Below are positions 3,001 to 63,386 of a stretch of DNA of 64,000 nucleotides, piece by piece (within the stretch, counting starts at the first letter, position 1; every line of letters starts with the position of its first letter). A program made the translations under genes and the position numbers. A model generated the notes under the pieces. That model saw only the letters and a list, made by a program, of their open reading frames with translations. It did not search any database and was not told the origin of the DNA. This stretch comes from a virus. Its lineage: Duplodnaviria > Heunggongvirae > Uroviricota > Caudoviricetes. The stretch spans positions 14,376 through 78,375 of the IMG/VR virus record IMGVR_UViG_2667527770_000005. One strand, written 5' to 3'.

Positions 3001-6000
3001 AGTCGTGTTTACCAAAGAACAATACGCCCGCATTCCGCTACGTGATGACACCGTAGATGAGCATGCACAGGATATGCTTTATGACTTCGTTGCAGCCGGG
3101 CGCGTAGCCAGCGCAATGGACTCCGACTCCCACCGCAAAGAGGCCGCGCGTCGCCGGGTATTGTCGGAGTATTCAGATACCGGCACCGAAAAAGCAGAGA
3201 AGTATCCGTACTTTGAGGATATGGGCTTCGATAGTGTGATCGCCGACGAAGGTCACAACTACCGCAATAGCTATAAAAATGGTCGCGAAGCGTCACAACT
3301 GGCCTATCTGCCCACCAGCGCGGTGGCGCAATCGGCGCGAGATATGGCAATTAAAAACGCGTACCTGATGAAAAAGAATGGCGGGCGCGGGCCGGTTCTC
3401 CTGACTGCAACGCCAGTCGTTAACACCCCGATCGATGCATACAACATGCTTTCTCATGTTCTGCCGAAGGAATACTGGCAGAACATGGGGATCTACGGTC
3501 CTGATGACTTCGTTAAATTCTTCGGCAAGACCAGGCTGGAAACGGTACAGAAAATTAGCGGTGAAGTTGAAGAAAAAATGGCGCTGGTGGGCTTTGAAAA
3601 CCTTGATGCGCTGCGCGGTATATTCCATCGCTGGGTAACGCTTAAAACGGCGGAAGACGTTAAGGATACCGTGGAGATCCCGGAGCTGGACGAACACCAG
3701 CAGGATGCACCACTTACTGAAGAACAACTGGCGGCGTATGAAGAATTGCGTCAGCAGGCGGAAGCGGCGGCCAAAGCCAACAATGGCGTAACGACCTCGG
3801 TCAATGAAGACGGCGTGATTGAGCACGAGAAAGCCCGTCCGATCTTCTCAATAATCAGGGATATGGACCGCGTATGTACTGACATGGACCTGTACTATCG
3901 CCGGATCACCTATCGTTTCCTGCCGGAGTACGCCGATGCGGTGCAGCAGCTGGCGGACAGTTTGCCTAAACAAGCCACCAGCGAAGACGACGACAGTGAT
4001 GATTCAATCACGCAGCAATCGCAATACTCCCTGATAGATAAGGGCGAGTTTATTCAGTTGCAGGTTCCGGAAGCGTTCGAGCAGGAAGTGAATAAGCGCC
4101 TGGCCAGGTTTGGCATTGACGAACAGACCGTAACTCACCCCGTTACGCCGAAATACGCGAAGCTGATCGCCACGCTGAAGGAGTTTTTCCCGGAAGGTAA
4201 GCAAATCATCTTCACCGATGAAAAAACGCAGCACCAGAAGCTCAAGCGCATTATCTGCAATGCTCTAAACCTTGAACCTTCAAAGGTGGGGATCCTGAAT
4301 GCTCAGACGGTTGCCGAGGCAGGTAAAACCGGTAAGAAACTGAAAGCGGTTAAACCGCCGAAAGAGCTACCGGATGAACCAACAGATGCACAGATAGCGA
4401 AATACAACGAGCAAATGGCTCTGTATGACGCCTATATCGCGCAGCAAAATGAAATGTCGTTGGGCGGTCTGGAAAAGATTGCAGCCGACTTCCAGGAGGG
4501 CCGGACTCCGATCATCATCTGCAACAAAAAGGCAGAGGTGGGTATCAACCTGCATCGAGGAACGACTGACATCCATCATCTGACGTTGCCATGGACACCA
4601 GCCAGCATCGCACAACGTAACGGTCGCGGTGCACGAGTTGGCTCCAACCGTGCAAGCGTTCGCGTTCACTACTACTGCGGCAAGGGGTCTTTCGATGAAT
4701 ACCGACTGAAGACGCTGAAGCGTAAAGCAGGCTGGATCTCCGATATCCTCCGTTCAGATAAGTCAGAAATGGAGAACGCCGACGCCAATGACATGATCGA
4801 AATGCAGATGTATACCGCGAAGGATGACGGCGAACGTCTGGCAATGATGCAGGTTCAAATGGATAAGGCGAAAGCTGCGAAACGCGCTCGCCAGAAAGAA
4901 CAGGCTACTATCGACCTTCAGAACTACATCAAGGCGCAGCACGCAGCTGGTGAGGATGTGGAGGTACTTACCGCTGAATTGGAGCGAAGCAAAGCGGAAC
5001 TTGAAAAGACCACCGCCGAGGTAGCTAAATTCAAACAGGCGGTAATGGCCAAAGCAGCTGATAACGCAGACTGGAAAGCCCGCTGGGGTAGCGTCCATCA
5101 CACAGACCGTATGTTGTTAGCACAGTATCGCGCGTCGTTGAAAAGCGCCATTCAGCGCAAGGCTAATATCTCTCAGGCCATCTCCCGCTATGAGAAATTA
5201 TTGAACCGTACTCAGAAGGCCGCGACGGATATCAAACGCCTGCGCCCGCTGGTGGAGGATGCAATAAATAAAGGCATTCTGGATGTTGATCCTGATCTGG
5301 TTAACCATGCGAATGAGTTCCTTGTTATCGGCGATCGCTCATGGCGTGTAGGCCAATACTATGATTGTGCCGGTGATATCGTTCGCATTAAGTCGCTGGA
5401 CTTCGACAGCCAGCGCGCAGACGTGGAGATCATCTTTACCTTCAAAGGCACCAAATCGGGTAACTGGGATGTGAAGACGCTGGATAAACAGGTTGATGTA
5501 ACTCCCGATGAAGATGCTGTTATGCAGAAAATCAGTGGTGGCGTCTCCATCGCCGGGATTAACGACATCATTTCCTGTGACGATTTCTACCGTTTCCAGC
5601 AGCGCGGCATGATCAAAATCACTGACTCATACGGCGTTCAGACTACAGAGTCAGGCTATAGCATCGATTTTGTTGGTACCTATACGGACCCACTGAAGCA
5701 TGCGGTTTACCCGGATCGCCGTGACGGCGCGCTGAAGTCGTCAATTGCAAAATGGGTGCTTGGTATGATGTCGGAAGGGAATAACCGCCAGATCCGTTCG
5801 GCAGAAACATTCCTGGTTGAACTGTTTGGCTCCAATTATGGCGATGTAATCGCGTCATACGGAGATACGCTATCCCCTGAAGCAATTCAGGAGAAAATAG
5901 CGGATGCGATCGCCAGAATGCCGGAAAAAACAAGCCAGGGGGCTACTCGTAACGGGGATTCTGAACTTGAAGTCACCAATGCCATTTTCGGTACCAATGA

Positions 6001-12592: not shown

Positions 12593-12609
12593 ATTGCTCT
12601 AATAAATTA
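12593..12609. promoter_or_regulatory. C1 operator (Op99-like) upstream of coi/c1
   Basis: ATTGCTCTAATAAATTA, near-exact Op consensus. Confidence 0.7.
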
Positions 12610-14044: not shown

Positions 14045-15529
14045 TTATTCATTAAGCCATGCCAGAGCTTCATCAACCTGCGCTTCGTCTTCGACGCTAA
14101 GCACTTCATCCTGGGGAACATAGTTCGCCAACATAGCGAAACAATATGTATCCCAATGGTCCGGTGAGTGCAGGTTGAGTTTTTTCTTCATATCTTCCTT
14201 TGACATCACCTTCCATTGACCTGCGGAATTTATCCCTACCGGTATCTTTGATGCTTCCTCTATAGTCGCAGCCCCCTTATCAAGCCGCATACGCCCTGAT
14301 TTTACAGCTTCTGCCGCCTGAATATTCGCGAAAGCGCGCATATCGAAATAAAGGCTTTTATCTTCACGGCTGTGCATCTTTTTACCCCAGCGGATACGCT
14401 GGACGGTAATGCCATAGCGTTCGTACATTAGATCAGCCGTCGATTTCCCCAAGCCATCGCCATCAATAGCTATGGTTATGTTCGGGAACCGTTCTGGGTT
14501 ACATTCTGCGAAAATCTTGGCGGCTAACTGCGTTTCTGTAACGTCTGTGTATTCCAGCATACGATAGTTGATTACACGGCGTTTATTTCGCTGGCCGGAC
14601 ACCATCATGATATTAATAACGGACTTATCTCGCCCTGTGCCACCAGCAACGTCAACACATGCAACCCAGCCCCATCCTTTGGCAATCTTGACCTTTCGCC
14701 GCGTCGCCCGCTCAACCTCATCACGACCAAGAAGAAAGCCATCTTGAGATTTGGGAAATTCACCACGTACTTTGATCATGTACATGGGGTTATCACGACC
14801 GCCATACTCCGCAAGTTTTGCTCGTATAAATTTTGCATCTACAAGCGGAGATTCTTCACTATTCAGTATTATCGCAGTAAACAATCCATCAGGATTTCCC
14901 GGGCGAATAGCTAGTCTGTGGTGTGAATCGTAGAAATAGCCTGAAGGTCGCGTAGGCTGGGAAAGAAGCAGAATACGGTTATCCTTACCGGTCAGCGCAC
15001 CTGTTATCACACTGAATGCTTTATCACTCACACCCGACGCTTCGTCGATGATATACAAGAGATGATCGGCGTGTTCACCAGCCAACGCCTCCTCATTTCC
15101 GGGGCGACAGGACTTTATCAATATTGTCCAAACACCCTTGCCAGTCACCTCAAAAAAAGACGTTTCTGTAAGAATGAAATACTTCGACAACCACGGGAAT
15201 CTGCTAACAGCAGTAGCCCAATTGCTCTTTATGTATTTGAAAATACCATCAAGGACTTGCTGTCTTTTGTTAGCGACCAGAATGACGCGAGCGCCGGGGA
15301 AAAACATGATGAAGAGTATTGCAATGATACTCGTCATATCCGATTTACCAGTACCATGGCCGGAGGTCACACTTGTCCAACTGCCGTCCTGCTGCGTGGA
15401 CTCAATGATCTCATCCTGCTGCCAGGTTGGTGTCTTCCCAAACAACACATCAGCGGCCGCAATCCAGTCATAACGATATAGCGCCACCAGCTCGCGCCAA
15501 CGTGGGTCCGTTACGCAACTTCTGGCCAT
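14045..15529 (-). CDS. pacB: PacB terminase large subunit, 494 aa
   Basis: Walker A GHGTGKS; follows pacA; size as P1 PacB. Confidence 0.9.
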
Positions 15530-42732: not shown

Positions 42733-42763
42733 TACACTAATAAATTTATTAGAGCAATATGGC
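42733..42763. promoter_or_regulatory. tandem/overlapping C1 operators upstream (minus strand) of the tRNA-SPFH-ban transcription unit
   Basis: ACACTAATAAATTTATTAGAGCAATATGG contains two Op matches. Confidence 0.6.
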
Positions 42764-49825: not shown

Positions 49826-50710
49826 ATGCCGGAAGAAAGTAAAGGCTTCCTTAGCGTTGAAGAAGTTGCAGGAAATACAGGAGAAATCCACAGCCTGAAG
49901 CCCAATAACAACAGCACTATACAACCTATCGCTTTGTTGCGCTTAGGTGTGTTTGTGCCAACCTTAAAATCTACCAATGTGGCACTACGTCGCGGATCGT
50001 CAGTTACTACAAACACAACGAACGCAACCGAAGAACTATCAAGCCTTAAAATTGTTGAGCAGGAAGGCTATGAGGGAATTGAAATTCATGGCCCACGCCT
50101 GGATATGGATACTGATTTTAAGGTGTGGGTGGGCATAACCTCCGCGTTGTTTGACTACGCACCTGATGATGACGGCATAATCACCCTGCCATTCTCCGAG
50201 TTTGCCGATCGATGCGGCTATCCACGTAAGCGCCTTTCAAAGGCGTTCCGTAAAAGTATTGATGACTCTCTGACACGCATTCAGCAGACAGTTGTCAAAT
50301 TCCGCTTCCCGGCGGCAAAAGGTCATCTCAATAACATTAACGTCAACTTGTTGGCATATAGCAGCCTGAATACCGAGCTTGATGTTATCGAGATCCAGCC
50401 GCAGAAACAGCTATCTGAACTTTACTATGTTGACTATAAGCGAATCCTGAAGCTGAAGATGCTGGATAAGCTCGGGCGCAAAGAGACGGCCAAGGTACTG
50501 TATACATTCTTTGAGGCTCTACCCGCCAACCCGGCACCTGTCAGCATTGAGCGCCTTAGAGCAAGGCTTAATCTCAAATCATCCGTTAGCGTGCAAAATA
50601 GCGTTATCAGAAAAGCCATGAAAGATTTGGAAGCTATTGAATATCTTAAATTTTCAGAAATAAAAAACGGCAGGAAAATCGGCTTCCAGATCCATAAGCG
50701 CAATCCATAA
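49826..50710 (+). CDS. repA: RepA iteron-binding plasmid replication initiator, 294 aa
   Basis: Flanked by iterons both sides; segments such as GPRLDMDTDFK and LRLGVFVP resemble P1 RepA as recalled. Confidence 0.88.
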   Translation: MPEESKGFLSVEEVAGNTGEIHSLKPNNNSTIQPIALLRLGVFVPTLKSTNVALRRGSSVTTNTTNATEELSSLKIVEQEGYEGIEIHGPRLDMDTDFKVWVGITSALFDYAPDDDGIITLPFSEFADRCGYPRKRLSKAFRKSIDDSLTRIQQTVVKFRFPAAKGHLNNINVNLLAYSSLNTELDVIEIQPQKQLSELYYVDYKRILKLKMLDKLGRKETAKVLYTFFEALPANPAPVSIERLRARLNLKSSVSVQNSVIRKAMKDLEAIEYLKFSEIKNGRKIGFQIHKRNP

Positions 50711-50970
50711 TATTGACTATATGCGATAGCGAGAAGTTGACTATAGGCGACATTCGTTGACGCTGGTGGATTTTTGCTGGCGTCAATATTCTGCAAGTCG
50801 CTATTGAGATGGCTTTTAGGGTCATTTCATCGCGTATAGTCAACGTTTCTCCCGACAATATCTTACATAGTCGATCTTTGGTGGAGTTAAATCGACTACA
50901 GTCAACTTTTGACTGTAGTCACATCGCGCATAGTCAACTATTCACATTAACTTTCGCGCATAGTCAACAT
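50710..50970. repeat. incA-like iteron array downstream of repA (TTGACTAT..CG units in both orientations)
   Basis: At least 7 iteron-like units, e.g. 50713, 50736, 50830, 50891, 50904, 50920, 50953. Confidence 0.7.
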
Positions 50971-51002
50971 TTGCGCGGTTCTCATCAAGCAGTGGTATTG
51001 AT

Positions 51003-51812
51003 ATGCAAGAAGAGAAACAACACTACCTCTACGTTCTGGTGCCGGAGAATGGAGATACTTTTAAAATCGGCATTTCATGTGGTCCATTGGCACGGTTTAA
51101 AGGGCTACAAGTGAGTCCCGATTTTGCGCTTTCACGGGTCTATCGTGGTACGCGTTTGGCAATAGTTAATCTTGAGCGGGCTTTACACGCAACCTTTTTC
51201 CCCTGGAATGCGCCGTGGGAGAAAAGCGCTGGTGGCGGGCATACTGAATGGTTTACACGAGAGTGTCTTGATAAGGTTTTGGCTCATATCGAATATCTAA
51301 ATGATATGTGGGGAGGGATTCTCGAGCGCATTAAGTCGAATGATTTACTTCAGCGTCCAGTAGATGCTGCCCGCTCTTTCGAAAAAGAGCTGGATGTTAC
51401 TTCTATCGTGACTTTCAAAGATGACGCAGGAATGAGGGACGTGGCTTATGTCTCCATATCTGGCTATGAACCGGACGCGATCCGCGCTCAATGTGAATTG
51501 CTGAAAGCAATGTTTATGCTTCGGACTAAATATTCCTGGGAGACAAGGCGGGTGTGCTTCCCTATGGAAGAGTTAACCGCCACCATTGATTCCCAGCTTT
51601 ACCACGATAATCCAGAGAAGTTTTTTAGCCTTTTAGCCGGTAATGGGCTTAACTGTGTGTCCGGGCTGGGGCGAAGTAGAATCCAACATGCCTCGCTCTT
51701 CGGTCCCTTCTTTTACGATCGACACGGGTACTTTGAGGCTGAACTTCCGGCGCTTACGCGTGCTATAGATACTATCGATTTCGAACGATTATTCGCTGCT
51801 CTTAGCAAATAA
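51003..51812 (+). CDS. T5orf172-domain (GIY-YIG-like) protein with unknown C-terminal domain, 269 aa
   Basis: N-terminal pattern YLYVL..FKIGIS..RFKGLQ..LERALHATF..GGGHTEWF. Confidence 0.6.
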   Translation: MQEEKQHYLYVLVPENGDTFKIGISCGPLARFKGLQVSPDFALSRVYRGTRLAIVNLERALHATFFPWNAPWEKSAGGGHTEWFTRECLDKVLAHIEYLNDMWGGILERIKSNDLLQRPVDAARSFEKELDVTSIVTFKDDAGMRDVAYVSISGYEPDAIRAQCELLKAMFMLRTKYSWETRRVCFPMEELTATIDSQLYHDNPEKFFSLLAGNGLNCVSGLGRSRIQHASLFGPFFYDRHGYFEAELPALTRAIDTIDFERLFAALSK

Positions 51813-59230: not shown

Positions 59231-59740
59231 ATGGGGCACAATAACACTAAGGGAAACCGTAAATTTATTAAGGGCCGCTATACTGCCAACGCGGCCAAAG
59301 GCGAACGACTGGTATCTTCTGAATTCCAGCTCACTTTTGCAGGCCATGAAGATATCAGTGTACTGGTTCGCACGTCGCAAATTCCTGAAATGACCCGCGA
59401 GGATGTGGAGGACTATGGTCCGAATGGTGTGAAGTTCAACCAGCACGGTCCAATCCGTAACTCCGGGGAAATCCAGGTCCAGTGCGTGGAGACTATCGAA
59501 GGCGATATTCTTCAGTTCATTAAAGATCGCATTGCGGCGAAGGACTATGTTGATATCACGATGGCTGCGACCCCTGAATCCAAATCTTCCGGGGTTAACG
59601 CTGTGACAAAAGCTGCTACAACAATTGAAATGTTGGACTGCAAAATCTACAGTGATGCAATCGACTTTAGTACCGAAGATGTGACTGCCGCTGTGCGTCC
59701 GTCACTTCGTATCGTTTACAACTGGATTGAGTGGGATTAA
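59231..59740 (+). CDS. structural/morphogenesis protein, 169 aa
   Basis: Last gene of operon before terminator. Confidence 0.45.
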   Translation: MGHNNTKGNRKFIKGRYTANAAKGERLVSSEFQLTFAGHEDISVLVRTSQIPEMTREDVEDYGPNGVKFNQHGPIRNSGEIQVQCVETIEGDILQFIKDRIAAKDYVDITMAATPESKSSGVNAVTKAATTIEMLDCKIYSDAIDFSTEDVTAAVRPSLRIVYNWIEWD

Positions 59741-59760
59741 GAGTCACCCCTTGTATTTTA

Positions 59761-59783
59761 AAGCTCCTACGGGAGCTTTTTTG
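59761..59783 (+). terminator. intrinsic terminator (AAGCTCC-TAC-GGGAGCTT + T-run)
   Basis: Read directly. Confidence 0.65.
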
Positions 59784-60286
59784 TGCTTAAATTATGCCGG
59801 TATAGCGAAATTTTGAGCATATTATGGAAATTGATTTTTCATACTCTCCTGAAACGATAGAACGAAGATTCGAAATAATTGGATGCAAAACTATTTCAGA
59901 GGAGCATTATTGGATTCTCTATGATGCCAATACATGGTTATGTGCCTTAGCAGAATGTCGGCCATCGTTATGTGCAGGGGAGGGAGGACTTCGACATAAG
60001 GTGCTGGCTACACTTGAAGTGAACACGTTACGATATTGGTGTGTCGAAATACTTAGGGATAACAAAGAATTACATTTATTATTGCTGAATAAGTGTGCGC
60101 CTCTGCGCAGGAAAGCATAAGAAAACCCAACCGCCATACTGGAATTATCAGAAGAATATGTGCGGAAAGTTATAGCTAGCTATTGAAAAGCTAAAGTAGA
60201 TCGGTTAGATTTACCTTACTCATCTACCATGCGTAGAAAGAGCGATCGAACCCGATACATAGCAATATGTGTCGGGTTCAGCTTTT

Positions 60287-60751
60287 TTATGTCCCAAGTG
60301 CTCTTTTTCTGCTTTGTTTGAGTGTTCTGATTTTACTGTCATAGGTTACAACATAGGCTGTTTTGAGAAGCCAATAGTCTCTACGTGCGGATAGCACAAC
60401 AACGTAGTTTTCACACTCGTTCCAGATTACCCACTCTTCAGTTGGTCCTCGTCTTTCAGACCAACATGATATATCGCAATGGTCATAATTCCTTATCATA
60501 TGCGCGATCCAGCGGATCCGCTTACACCGTTCAAGATCAGGTATTCGTTCTTCTTCTATTTTTCCCTCTGATACTAAATGCCAAAATCCGAACTCTTTCC
60601 CATCATATTCCGGTGAATAACGTAATCGAACAGGGAGACCCTTAAACGTTATATTAGAGATTAAAATATCTTCTCTAACAACATCATATACATCGTCTAT
60701 ATACTCTTGCCAACTTCCATTGAAGTACAATAAATCTGGCATTTGAAGCAT
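60287..60751 (-). CDS. hypothetical protein, 154 aa, translationally coupled to DUF3800 gene
   Basis: ATG overlaps upstream TGA by 1 nt (TGATG); AT-rich. Confidence 0.5.
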   Translation of the reverse strand: MLQMPDLLYFNGSWQEYIDDVYDVVREDILISNITFKGLPVRLRYSPEYDGKEFGFWHLVSEGKIEEERIPDLERCKRIRWIAHMIRNYDHCDISCWSERRGPTEEWVIWNECENYVVVLSARRDYWLLKTAYVVTYDSKIRTLKQSRKRALGT

Positions 60752-61455
60752 CAGCGAGCCTCCCACACGAAAATATTAAATTTACTTTCTGTTGGAAGAG
60801 TGCTTTTTAGTAACTCCCTGTTTGTATGTGATTTTATCCTGTTTATGACTTGGATTTTTCCCGCGTTGCTATTCATTCCTCGATGAACGTAGCCTAACGC
60901 ACCAATGAAAAGATCCGTTAGCTGCAATTGTTGCACTTCATGAGATCGTATATGTTGAATTCTGTTTATCGACTCATGATTGTAATCATAGCGATCATTG
61001 TGAAGAACTCCTCTTAATTTCTCAATTTTTTCAATACCTAAAGTATCTTTTATATCTAGGTAGATATTGTATGTGTTGTTACTTTCTATTATGTTTTTTA
61101 AGACATAAAAAAACATCTTATAATAGAAAGTATTGTGATCTTGATGGAATCGAGCATGGTCCAGTTGCTCTTTATCAGGAACAACAACACCTCTAAAGCG
61201 CAATGCTGGGTTGCTGAAGAAGTAATCTACGACCTCTAAGTAAAATTCAACTTTGGACGCAGATACTTTAGTCCACTTGATTTCGAAATCAGGTTTTAAA
61301 TTGTGTTTTAATTTTAATCCCTTGATGTCTCTAGCAATTTTTTTTGTGATAGTGCCAGGACACCAAAGCGCACCCAATACCATGACTTTATTATGATCAT
61401 TTAGTAGGTGACAGGATTCATCGCAGAATACATTAAATGTTCTTCGGTTCAACAT
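60751..61455 (-). CDS. DUF3800-like protein, 234 aa
   Basis: N-terminal FCDES motif; ATG with GGAG SD; AT-rich. Confidence 0.55.
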   Translation of the reverse strand: MLNRRTFNVFCDESCHLLNDHNKVMVLGALWCPGTITKKIARDIKGLKLKHNLKPDFEIKWTKVSASKVEFYLEVVDYFFSNPALRFRGVVVPDKEQLDHARFHQDHNTFYYKMFFYVLKNIIESNNTYNIYLDIKDTLGIEKIEKLRGVLHNDRYDYNHESINRIQHIRSHEVQQLQLTDLFIGALGYVHRGMNSNAGKIQVINRIKSHTNRELLKSTLPTESKFNIFVWEAR

Positions 61456-61608
61456 GTTAACTCCACTTATTGTTAGGTAGAATTGTCCGTTAGTTGTTTA
61501 TTAATTGCAATAATGGGACGTTCTGATTTGCTAACTACGTCATCTTACCAGGACGCCTATGAGTTTTCCTCATGGCAAACTAGAGGTGTTGAAAGTATGC
61601 ATGGTTAT

Positions 61609-61627
61609 AATTAGAGCAATCTATCAC
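61609..61627. promoter_or_regulatory. C1 operator-like site at repL 3' end, upstream of DUF3800 cassette
   Basis: ATAATTAGAGCAATCTATC. Confidence 0.5.
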
Positions 61628-62469
61628 CCTCTGAATCCTACCGGTATACCCCATTGTTCGTTATCTTTATTTTTGGCTAATACCGCATTAAGTGCTTCGT
61701 TTACCGTCATGCAATGCGGTAGATTATCGAAGTTTGATATCCAGCCAATATCAGGAGAACGCTTGTTCTTCAGGTAAGCATATTTCCGCGCTGCCGCCTC
61801 TACTTTCTGCTTGAACTCATGTTTTTGAGCGCGTTTTTTGGATAACCGCAGATTGTCAGCCTTTGCTTTTGCCTCAGCGATCCATGAAGTCAGTTTTTTG
61901 AGGCTGGTCGTTCCGGTACCGCCGGAAACTGATCTTTTTGTTTTTTTAATTTGTGACTTCTTATTCTTTATTGCCACGTCATCCTGACAGGGGGAGGGGG
62001 TATCATTTTGACATGGGGGTGTGGATAAAAAATTAAATAAAGCCAATGTCTTAGCGAGAACAGCTTTAACCTTGGTTGCCGCTGAAGAGATCTTTAATTT
62101 GCTTTCAATCAGCGCATTTTTGGCTTGTTGTGCGAAGGCCAAAAAGGATGGTGTAAACCGGTACAGGTTAGCGCGACGTTCACGGTGATCGCCGATAACA
62201 ATCTCTACAGACAGAATTCCTTTGTTTACAGCTTCACGGAATGCACGAACGACGGTTGATTGGCTATAACCAGTTTCTGCCGCGATCAGGCGGTGAGGCT
62301 TGTGAATGAAGTATTCACTGGTTGTTGCCGCGAGATTTGCACATTGCGACAGGATATGCCCGGCGCTACGGGATAGACCGGAGTGTGTTACAAAGCAGGC
62401 CAATTCATAGCCAGAAAAAGTAAAATCGCTCATCGTTATACAGCTCAGGAAAGTGACTTTAGCCAGCAT
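61624..62469 (-). CDS. repL: RepL lytic replication initiator, 281 aa
   Basis: Downstream of kilA; size as P1 RepL. Confidence 0.85.
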   Translation of the reverse strand: MLAKVTFLSCITMSDFTFSGYELACFVTHSGLSRSAGHILSQCANLAATTSEYFIHKPHRLIAAETGYSQSTVVRAFREAVNKGILSVEIVIGDHRERRANLYRFTPSFLAFAQQAKNALIESKLKISSAATKVKAVLAKTLALFNFLSTPPCQNDTPSPCQDDVAIKNKKSQIKKTKRSVSGGTGTTSLKKLTSWIAEAKAKADNLRLSKKRAQKHEFKQKVEAAARKYAYLKNKRSPDIGWISNFDNLPHCMTVNEALNAVLAKNKDNEQWGIPVGFRG

Positions 62470-62498
62470 TACAATGCTGGTGGTTCTTACTACGTCTG

Positions 62499-63299
62499 TT
62501 AGCGCGTTGCCGCGACAGGTACCAGCACACCAGCATCAAGCAATCGCTTCATCAGCCACTGCTGACCTTTGCCGGTTATACGAGTCGTGAAAGAAATCCT
62601 GCTTCCATTGCTTGTATCGATCACGGTTTCTTTAAGGGTGAAATACCCACGGGATATGTATTCTTGTTTGGGGACGTTCCTGCGTTCACCGGTTGCGATC
62701 AGAATTCCGTTATCACGCAACCAGGTGAAGAGATAGTTTTGGCCCAGGCCGAGCACTTTGGCATAGTTGCCGATTAGAACCCCGCTGGCGGTAGCAACGC
62801 GTTCGGCGAATTCGACTTTAGGTGCATCCATCAGCATTTTTTGCTCCAGCCGTTGCTTTTGCTCTGCCAGGTCGGCAGCCAAACGGAGAGCTTCAGGGAG
62901 ACTCTGCGGAATAGCAGGTTGTAATCTTCCGGCTCGATAGTCGATAAATGTCTGGTTTACCTTCAGCCGAAACGCGGGAGAAATCCAGCCTGCGTACTCC
63001 ACAGCGAGCAATTCATGGGCAAAAGTGCCGCCGCCACGGCCTTCGAACGAAACTATGCAATTCTGCATAGTTTCTTTTTCAAGCTCTTCGATGAGCTGTT
63101 TGGCTGACAGCGTTCTTAGCCATTGAGCTGGCGCTTTATGGGCACCGAGTCCGCTCGCTCTGTGTAGAGCATTAAGGTTGTAACGGCCAGCGCGGTCGGT
63201 CGTAATTTCAACACCACAAATAACAGGCAGAGTGGTTGAAGGATCGACATTTTGATGAAGGTTTGATATATTCATATCCGCATAGAATGTTTGTTGCAT
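62499..63299 (-). CDS. kilA: KilA (KilA-N domain), 266 aa
   Basis: Size and position with Op53-like operator upstream. Confidence 0.85.
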   Translation of the reverse strand: MQQTFYADMNISNLHQNVDPSTTLPVICGVEITTDRAGRYNLNALHRASGLGAHKAPAQWLRTLSAKQLIEELEKETMQNCIVSFEGRGGGTFAHELLAVEYAGWISPAFRLKVNQTFIDYRAGRLQPAIPQSLPEALRLAADLAEQKQRLEQKMLMDAPKVEFAERVATASGVLIGNYAKVLGLGQNYLFTWLRDNGILIATGERRNVPKQEYISRGYFTLKETVIDTSNGSRISFTTRITGKGQQWLMKRLLDAGVLVPVAATR

Positions 63300-63369
63300 T
63301 TTTTCTCCAAATTTGCATCAACCTTCAATCACCAGCTCGAAATGGTGATTCTTTGCACTTAGAAAACGA

Positions 63370-63386
63370 AATTTATTAGAGCAAAT
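63370..63386. promoter_or_regulatory. C1 operator (Op53-like) upstream of kilA-repL
   Basis: AAATTTATTAGAGCAAA. Confidence 0.65.

Follow-up and report, generated by a model that had tools for sequence, protein, structure and literature searches.

Near the end of the 64,000-nucleotide window that we analysed (the whole stretch, positions 14,376 to 78,375 of the IMG/VR virus record IMGVR_UViG_2667527770_000005), two minus-strand genes lie between the structural operon and the replication gene repL. By comparison with reference sequences, they are the rlfA and rlfB genes of a P1-type phage-plasmid and form an operon behind the C1 repressor operator Orlf. RlfA is identical to P1 RlfA at 232 of 234 residues (substitutions G46E and E74D) and RlfB to P1 RlfB at 152 of 154 (D50N and D90N), in both cases over the full length and without gaps. 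Over 59750-61700 the DNA shares 96.5% identity with P1, 97.3% with P7, whose copies are named rapA and rapB, and 99.8% with phage JL22, to which it is nearer; the two proteins differ from those of P1 by these few substitutions only. Furthermore, the segment 59741-61623 is 100% identical to the E. coli plasmid NZ_CP015997.1. The surroundings are conserved as well, with bplB-pmgF on one side, repL-kilA on the other and Orlf between repL and rlfA. The position between pmgF and repL, the gene overlap and the 17-nt operator are all the same as in P1 and P7.

An earlier note made from the letters of this DNA had rightly recognised the position of P1 rlfA/rlfB, and could not tell whether the genes were orthologues or cargo that had replaced them. 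The comparison with the P1 proteins that it proposed gave alignments along the entire length, the result it had named as speaking against replacement; thus the genes are orthologues. The idea that other cargo displaced rlfA/rlfB draws on the slot, which is truly variable in P1-like elements, and on the low GC content of the cassette. Nevertheless, both proteins are 99% identical to their P1 counterparts and pmgF and the operator are the P1 versions too, therefore we rejected this explanation, whose probability is negligible. For this window the result is ordinary: these are P1's own rlfA/rlfB and the known Orlf. Actually, the genes and the operator are already known from the P1 and P7 reference records, and the P1 record (NC_005856.1), which annotates rlfA and rlfB as "possibly associated with lytic replication", already lists adjacent relatives of both genes in Shewanella oneidensis (NP_719790 and NP_719789). 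What is new here is only the count of paired genes (80 out of 80 loci), the breadth of their embedding in restriction-modification operons and a tentative RNase-toxin fold of RlfB.

The gene order at the end of the window is of the P1 type: gene 22 (sheath), gene 21, pmgG and bplB on the plus strand, followed by pmgF on the same strand and then by rlfB, rlfA, repL and kilA on the minus strand (Table 1). The sharp drop in composition after the structural terminator, described before, corresponds to a GC content of 0.507 from gene 22 to bplB against 0.377 in 59741-61623 (rlfA 0.352, rlfB 0.391 and pmgF 0.401), the whole window having 0.474. The TGA stop codon of rlfA (60753-60751) and the ATG of rlfB (60751-60749) have one A in common (TGATG), and GGGAGG sits 8 nt upstream of this ATG, which agrees with the translational coupling that had been proposed for the pair. 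In the list of open reading frames (ORFs) made by a program, rlfB has 159 aa and a GTG start at 60766; we take the ATG as the start, because the homologues keep the N-terminus M-L-x-M-P, and this gives the 154-aa partner that had been described next to a DUF3800-like protein. The N-terminus of RlfA is MLNRRTFNVFCDES. The 170-nt intergenic region between pmgF and rlfB has a folding z of -4.43, and its hairpin is probably a bidirectional terminator. PmgF matches PHROG 7349, whose function annotation reads "unknown function".

Table 1. Features between the end of the structural operon and kilA (positions in the window)
Feature	Position	Strand	Remarks
bplB/structural-operon terminator	59760..59783	+	8-bp stem-loop (59760-59779) followed by a T-run; bplB ends at 59740
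pmgF, 98 aa	59824..60120	+	92/98 identical to P1 PmgF; low GC; swapped together with rlfAB
14-bp perfect hairpin	60248..60279		between the convergent pmgF and rlfB; terminator-like site
rlfB, 154 aa	60287..60751	-	PADLOC PDC-M04B match; no Pfam family; possibly a RelE/colicin D-like RNase fold
rlfA, 234 aa	60751..61455	-	DUF3800; predicted type-2 RNase H-like fold; PADLOC PDC-M04A match
predicted promoter PrlfA	61482..61510	-	TTGCAA, 17 nt, GACAAT; transferred from the P1 annotation
C1 repressor operator Orlf (formerly Op55)	61604..61620	-	identical to the annotated P1 and P7 operators
repL (contains oriL)	61624..62469	-	annotated in P1 and P7; upstream neighbour, context outside the module
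kilA	62499..63299	-	P1-type gene order

Regarding RlfA, the profile search for DUF3800 was positive: the protein matches Pfam PF12686 with E = 7.6e-14 and 53.1 bits (cut-off 21) over profile positions 1-148 of 149. Its relatives fall into 5364 database clusters at E <= 1e-3, and even those of distant phyla share more than 50% identity. Residues D12, E13, S14, C15, H16, D20, D134, K136, D137, Q178 and D181 are invariant in an alignment of 35 sequences. According to PMC7736814, the signatures of DUF3800 are an N-terminal DE and a C-terminal QxxD; both are present in RlfA, as D12-E13 and Q178-L-T-D181, and both are invariant in the same 35 sequences. The structures of RlfA and RlfB used in this work are predictions. 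The predicted fold of RlfA is RNase H-like, closest to the type-2 enzymes (RNase HII/H2A), and in the model D12, E13, D134, D137 and D181 appear suitably placed in the secondary structure. As in type-2 RNase H, an adjacent D-E ends strand 1 and further acidic residues come later in the chain. RlfA is thus a DUF3800 protein with a predicted type-2 RNase H-like fold and intact conserved carboxylates. Neither Pfam (E <= 0.1) nor the sequence-profile search of the PDB (E <= 10) matched it to RNase HII, and the latter returned chance-level matches only; RlfA is RNase H-like by fold and not a member of the RNase HII family. In NCBIfam, RlfA, RlfB and PmgF had no match.

Other DUF3800 proteins differ from RlfA in their surroundings. 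DUF3800 also occurs in retron type VII and Cas12a2/a3 loci, and PMC10910872 likewise predicts an RNase H fold for a CRISPR-linked DUF3800 protein. However, the reverse transcriptase, the TPR domain and the CRISPR array that go with the retron type VII effector or with the TPR-DUF3800 proteins of Cas12a2/a3 loci are absent at the rlfAB locus. RNA motifs associated with DUF3800 are described by Weinberg et al. (PMC5737381). A scan of 59600-62600 against Rfam at E <= 10 found none of the motifs DUF3800-I to XI and only three chance-level matches (E 2.3-3.6), and the 168-nt leader of rlfA had a folding z of -1.7, with no sign of a structured RNA. Furthermore, there is no room for a leader RNA in several restriction-modification operons, because the start of rlfA overlaps the stop of hsdS.

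The small partner is more difficult to classify. None of 27 sequences (RlfB and 26 homologues) had a meaningful match in Pfam, and the best match of RlfB in the PDB sequence-profile search had E = 1.3, which is chance level. The family comprises 756 clusters and 1778 representatives at 50% identity, nearly all of them standalone proteins of 150-190 aa. Two residues, H58 and R75, do not vary among 79 sequences drawn from many phyla, and R69, D72, E77, R78, W81 and W97 are conserved in at least 90% of them, a pattern that would be compatible with a metal-independent RNase site. The model of RlfB gave weak matches to RelE, YafQ, HigB, YoeB and colicin D. Since Foldseek against the PDB gave nothing significant, we lowered this assignment to a suggestion: RlfB may have a RNase fold of the RelE/colicin D type. 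RelE/ParE toxins differ from RlfB, which at 154 aa has about 50 extra N-terminal residues and no profile-level similarity to them. In the search for remote homology, the PADLOC profile PDC-M04B recognises this partner, whereas Pfam, NCBIfam and PDB sequence matches are lacking and the fold match is weak.

Regarding the names given to this family, PHROG 16230 labels RlfB 'replication protein', which merely echoes the P1 name. Many RlfB homologues (among them P0003, P0007, P0012 and P0156) are named 'oxidoreductase' by NCBI, and the Klebsiella cluster P0156 alone is found on 834 contigs. We rejected this name, as it has no support from Pfam, NCBIfam or PDB profiles and looks like a propagated misannotation.

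Both proteins match the PADLOC candidate system PDC-M04 (RlfA to PDC-M04A, 2.2e-95; RlfB to PDC-M04B, 3.5e-51), with the genes overlapping by 1 nt. As in PDC-M04, which consists of a DUF3800 protein (A) and a small partner (B), the two genes are adjacent on one strand. Nevertheless, PDC-M04 is a candidate from genomic context only, and here the pair adjoins repL in a phage-plasmid and does not lie within a restriction-modification operon. In order to describe the context of the pair elsewhere, we surveyed one genome per species. At least 581 loci encode an RlfA relative, and we kept the 80 that scored best (48-75% identity), which come from groups including Bacteroidota, Nitrospirota, Chloroflexota, Desulfobacterota, Cyanobacteria, Gammaproteobacteria, Acidobacteriota and Planctomycetota. 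An RlfB-family ORF was found directly downstream and on the same strand in all 80 (split in L038 and L096), and in 79 of them the position corresponding to RlfB residue 1 lies between -7 and +27 nt from the rlfA stop codon. We read rlfAB as a single instance of a widespread module of two genes that is self-contained and not specific to P1 replication. In three loci the partner is damaged while rlfA is intact: it is truncated to 57 aa in Methylomonas sp. 11b (L017, 7699-7872) and split into two ORFs in L038 (884-1381) and L096 (6478-7110). These cases could be gene decay or assembly errors, and bear on which component might be toxic.

The surveyed pairs are embedded in restriction-modification loci to a considerable extent. 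Using phmmer with HsdR, HsdM and HsdS seeds from four annotated loci, we found type I hsd genes on the same strand in 35 of the 80 loci. In 34 loci they are no more than 3 kb away and in 15 they flank the pair on both sides; of the 27 loci that extend by at least 8 kb in either direction, 15 have them. With many short contigs and few seeds, these counts are minimum values. By a rough estimate, which is not a computed value, around 1% of random genes would have a type I system at a distance of a few kb. In loci with precomputed Pfam annotation the arrangements vary: hsdR-mazE-PIN-[pair]-hsdM-hsdS in Anaerolineales, hsdS-[pair]-hsdR in Nitrospirota and Methylomonas, where rlfA overlaps the hsdS stop, and in Algoriphagus pacificus (L013/L014, 1-14708) a type I hsdM/S fusion followed by a reverse transcriptase of 502 aa, then by the DUF3800-RlfB pair and finally by hsdR. 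After hsdR, the Algoriphagus pacificus island continues with a 325-aa ORF and a 686-aa Piwi-domain protein (prokaryotic Argonaute), so that it is a dense defence island. We also examined six loci without a type I match, and five of them adjoin type III, type IIG or DUF1156-methylase/PLD-helicase genes. The pair lies between type III mod and res in two (L076 and L083), downstream of a type III res-like gene in L052, between a DUF1156 methylase and a PLD helicase in L062, and after an HKD-Snf2 protein and a type IIG enzyme in L057; in the sixth, L031, it follows a large TPR protein.

These contexts bear on the name of the genes. "Replication-linked function" was given from position only, and an explanation in keeping with it would have RlfA, as an RNase H-like protein, aid the lytic replication driven by RepL, for example by making a primer from the oriL transcript or an R-loop, with RlfB as an accessory. 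In its favour, repL/oriL is the immediate upstream neighbour of the pair and no terminator separates the two, one repressor system serves both (Orlf and OrepL), RlfA has the predicted type-2 RNase H-like fold, the RlfB label in PHROG reads in this sense although it derives from the P1 name, and the transcripts rise with repL early in infection (bioRxiv 10.64898/2025.12.28.696737). However, all 80 surveyed bacterial loci have the pair without repL, mostly inside restriction-modification operons, around 80% of the repL-bearing plasmids and 13 of 21 phage records lack the pair, RCS47 and phi456 have repL without it, and the repL fragment that the P1 record notes as present in P1-derived artificial chromosome (PAC) vectors (50195..51736 of that record) ends 4 nt before rlfA. 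Furthermore, after knock-down by CRISPR interference the efficiency of plating was 1.3 for rlfA and 0.88 for rlfB (PMC10695390); plating is not reduced and rlfAB is dispensable for P1 plaque formation. We consider a role in replication very unlikely. The name is doubtful because the module is obligate (80/80), sits mostly in restriction-modification contexts, contains an RNase H2-like protein and is dispensable and swappable in P1-like elements; the evidence thus points away from it, and an immunity or toxin-like nuclease system appears more likely than a replication function.

The slot between bplB and repL is indeed swappable. The genes rlfA-rlfB-pmgF form variable region 5 of P1-like phage-plasmids, which has been linked to low GC (PMC9603915), and replacements of these genes have been described in P1-like elements (PMC6906374). 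Among the PLSDB plasmids, repL is present in 507 (counted at a coverage of at least 80%) and the rlfAB-pmgF cassette in 99, that is, around 20%; 8 of the 21 phage records carry the cassette. In E. coli, rlfAB was found in 121 of 5426 complete genomes, at 123 places on plasmids, almost always of about 90-115 kb, and at 5 on chromosomes. On the left, homology with cassette-less P1-like plasmids ends around 59782, just past the bplB terminator (the matches H43 and H44 cover query positions 1-42). The right limit lies inside Orlf: RCS47 and phi456 still have ATTGCTCTAAT right behind the stop codon of repL, but their sequences part from the window at the following base. The junction can be compared in L011 and L012 near 4001-4015. 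This conserved operator half may be a recombination boundary, or a half-site kept for the control of repL. What fills the slot differs between elements, with a 198-aa ORF and an IS605-family transposase in RCS47 (L011, 1753-3857), the 198-aa ORF together with a DUF3892 protein and a protein of the ParA family (351 aa) in NZ_CP122833.1 (L099, 4672-6972), and almost nothing in phi456. We also considered the slot as a general defence hotspot and found this unsupported, the alternative cargo of NZ_CP122833 having no PADLOC matches.

As for the control of the operon, the C1-operator-like site that had been reported upstream of the pair was found on the minus strand at 61620-61604, where it follows immediately on the TAG that ends repL (61626-61624). 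Its sequence, ATTGCTCTAATTATAAC, is base for base the P1 "monovalent C1-controlled operator Orlf; former Op55" and the P7 Op(rap). Compared with the asymmetric 17-bp C1 consensus ATTGCTCTAATAAATTT, it agrees at all 11 positions of the core and at 12 of 17 over the whole site, therefore it was missed by the consensus scan, which allowed up to 3 mismatches. Chance would give around 0.03 copies of the 11-nt core ATTGCTCTAAT in the window, which has 9. Orlf lies around 94 bp upstream of the -35 element of PrlfA, the sole promoter predicted here in the P1 record, and does not overlap it. PrlfA agrees with the consensus at 8 of 12 positions, below the threshold of our promoter scan; actually, the sigma-70 scan upstream of rlfA found no strong promoter, and only the weak PrlfA could be mapped from the P1 record. 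The terminator scan found no terminator-like site between repL and rlfA, therefore rlfAB may also be read through from the C1-controlled promoter of kilA-repL (operator 63369-63385). That the pair is repressed in the lysogen, as the earlier note had supposed, is plausible. It is likewise plausible that rlfAB is switched on by derepression rather than in the quiescent lysogen, because it lies behind the C1-controlled kilA-repL operon and Orlf. Both genes are among those differentially expressed at 10 and 20 min of P1vir infection (bioRxiv 10.64898/2025.12.28.696737). Such timing would plausibly suit the exclusion of competitors or the lytic take-over of the host better than the classical protection of a lysogen.

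Other C1 sites were found in the same window. Fifteen sites fit the operator consensus with up to 3 mismatches, against 0.45 expected, for example 12593-12609, 26652-26668 and 42742-42758, and the site at 63369-63385, upstream of kilA, corresponds to OrepL/Op53. The site pairs 12510/12593, 28744/28793 and 42731/42742 look like bivalent or closely spaced C1 operators.

Taking these data together, we read rlfAB as a nucleic-acid-cleaving immunity or abortive-infection module with toxin-antitoxin-like behaviour, held in a swappable slot of P1 and switched on at derepression, and we give this reading a probability of around 50%. RlfA and RlfB would act as a complex, which is probable because the genes are translationally coupled. 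The module would cleave nucleic acid in an immunity, abortive-infection or toxin-antitoxin-like system that complements restriction; among possible roles, immunity or abortive infection is the most likely, because type I, type III, type IIG and DUF1156-methylase/PLD-helicase operons harbour the pair on the strand of their own genes. It could serve as a back-up to restriction in the manner of PrrC, the anticodon nuclease of the EcoprrI locus. Like PrrC and RloC, the rlfAB relatives are a putative nuclease module on the same strand between hsd genes, and the RlfB model weakly matches colicin D, itself a tRNA anticodon nuclease. However, there is no sequence or domain kinship between these anticodon nucleases and rlfAB, so that the likeness is one of genomic context only, and PrrC is a single ABC-ATPase-like protein whereas rlfAB encodes two proteins, one of them RNase H-like by prediction. 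In P1, the module occupies the low-GC swappable bplB-repL slot and would be switched on upon derepression. The earlier proposal of a second candidate accessory immunity module is therefore kept for the PDC-M04 match and the restriction-modification embedding; the defence itself is what we infer.

Four points weigh against this reading. Restriction-modification operons also harbour toxin-antitoxin pairs and further kinds of selfish genes, therefore the context cannot tell immunity from addiction. If repressed by C1, the pair could not guard a quiescent lysogen as classical prophage defences do. The three alternative slot proteins of NZ_CP122833 (the 198-aa ORF, the DUF3892 protein and the ParA-like protein) have no PADLOC matches. 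Finally, the literature that we searched has no experiment on the activity of PDC-M04, RlfA or RlfB, nor, among the DUF3800 papers considered, a study devoted to a gene pair of this kind.

The first of these points leads to a pure toxin-antitoxin or addiction system, in which RlfA would neutralise RlfB, the latter acting as an RNase toxin, and which would stabilise the DNA that carries it (operon, island or P1 plasmid) with no direct role against phages. The order of the genes, a neutraliser upstream of a small protein with overlapping stop and start codons, fits this explanation, and so do the weak matches of the RlfB model to RelE, YafQ, HigB, YoeB and colicin D. The pair also adjoins mazE-PIN in the same operon gap in Anaerolineales and SymE in Citrobacter. 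Furthermore, in a Legionella screen by transposon sequencing (bioRxiv 10.1101/2020.10.01.323287) a strain-specific DUF3800 gene was scored, together with antitoxins, as essential; the likeness is at the level of DUF3800 only, and such essentiality would fit a neutraliser role for the DUF3800 component. Nevertheless, RlfA is not a small DNA-binding antitoxin: with 234 aa, more than 50% identity across phyla and intact acidic residues it is enzyme-like, and it has no HTH or RHH match in Pfam, whereas type II pairs such as RelE/ParE have a small DNA-binding antitoxin upstream. P1 already has phd-doc for addiction, an addiction module repressed by C1 would be silent in the plasmid state, and the assignment of the toxin fold is weak. 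Thus we regard pure addiction as unlikely.

The immunity reading can also be taken further. RlfAB might be a mechanistically new immune module of two nucleases, an RNase H2-like enzyme or sensor and a RelE/colicin D-like RNase, that backs up restriction in bacteria and was captured by P1 behind a C1 operator. We put this forward tentatively, as a possibility that we would not yet favour. Such a module would act on induction or infection, perhaps by cutting host RNA or by keeping out co-infecting phages or plasmids, and would not guard the quiescent lysogen. As P1 is genetically tractable, it is a convenient place to study the PDC-M04 candidate and the biochemistry of DUF3800.

Besides P1, one more mobile context was seen. 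The Citrobacter island has the order RhuM-[pair]-SymE, and in L005 (724-8465, Logan SRR30297879) RhuM-DUF3800-RlfB-SymE stands directly after an AlpA regulator and a D5/Toprim primase. This locus carries P0007, the RlfB homologue named by NCBI sources from Citrobacter werkmanii. Its surroundings resemble a P4-like satellite or an integrative island, which suggests a second mobile vehicle for the module.

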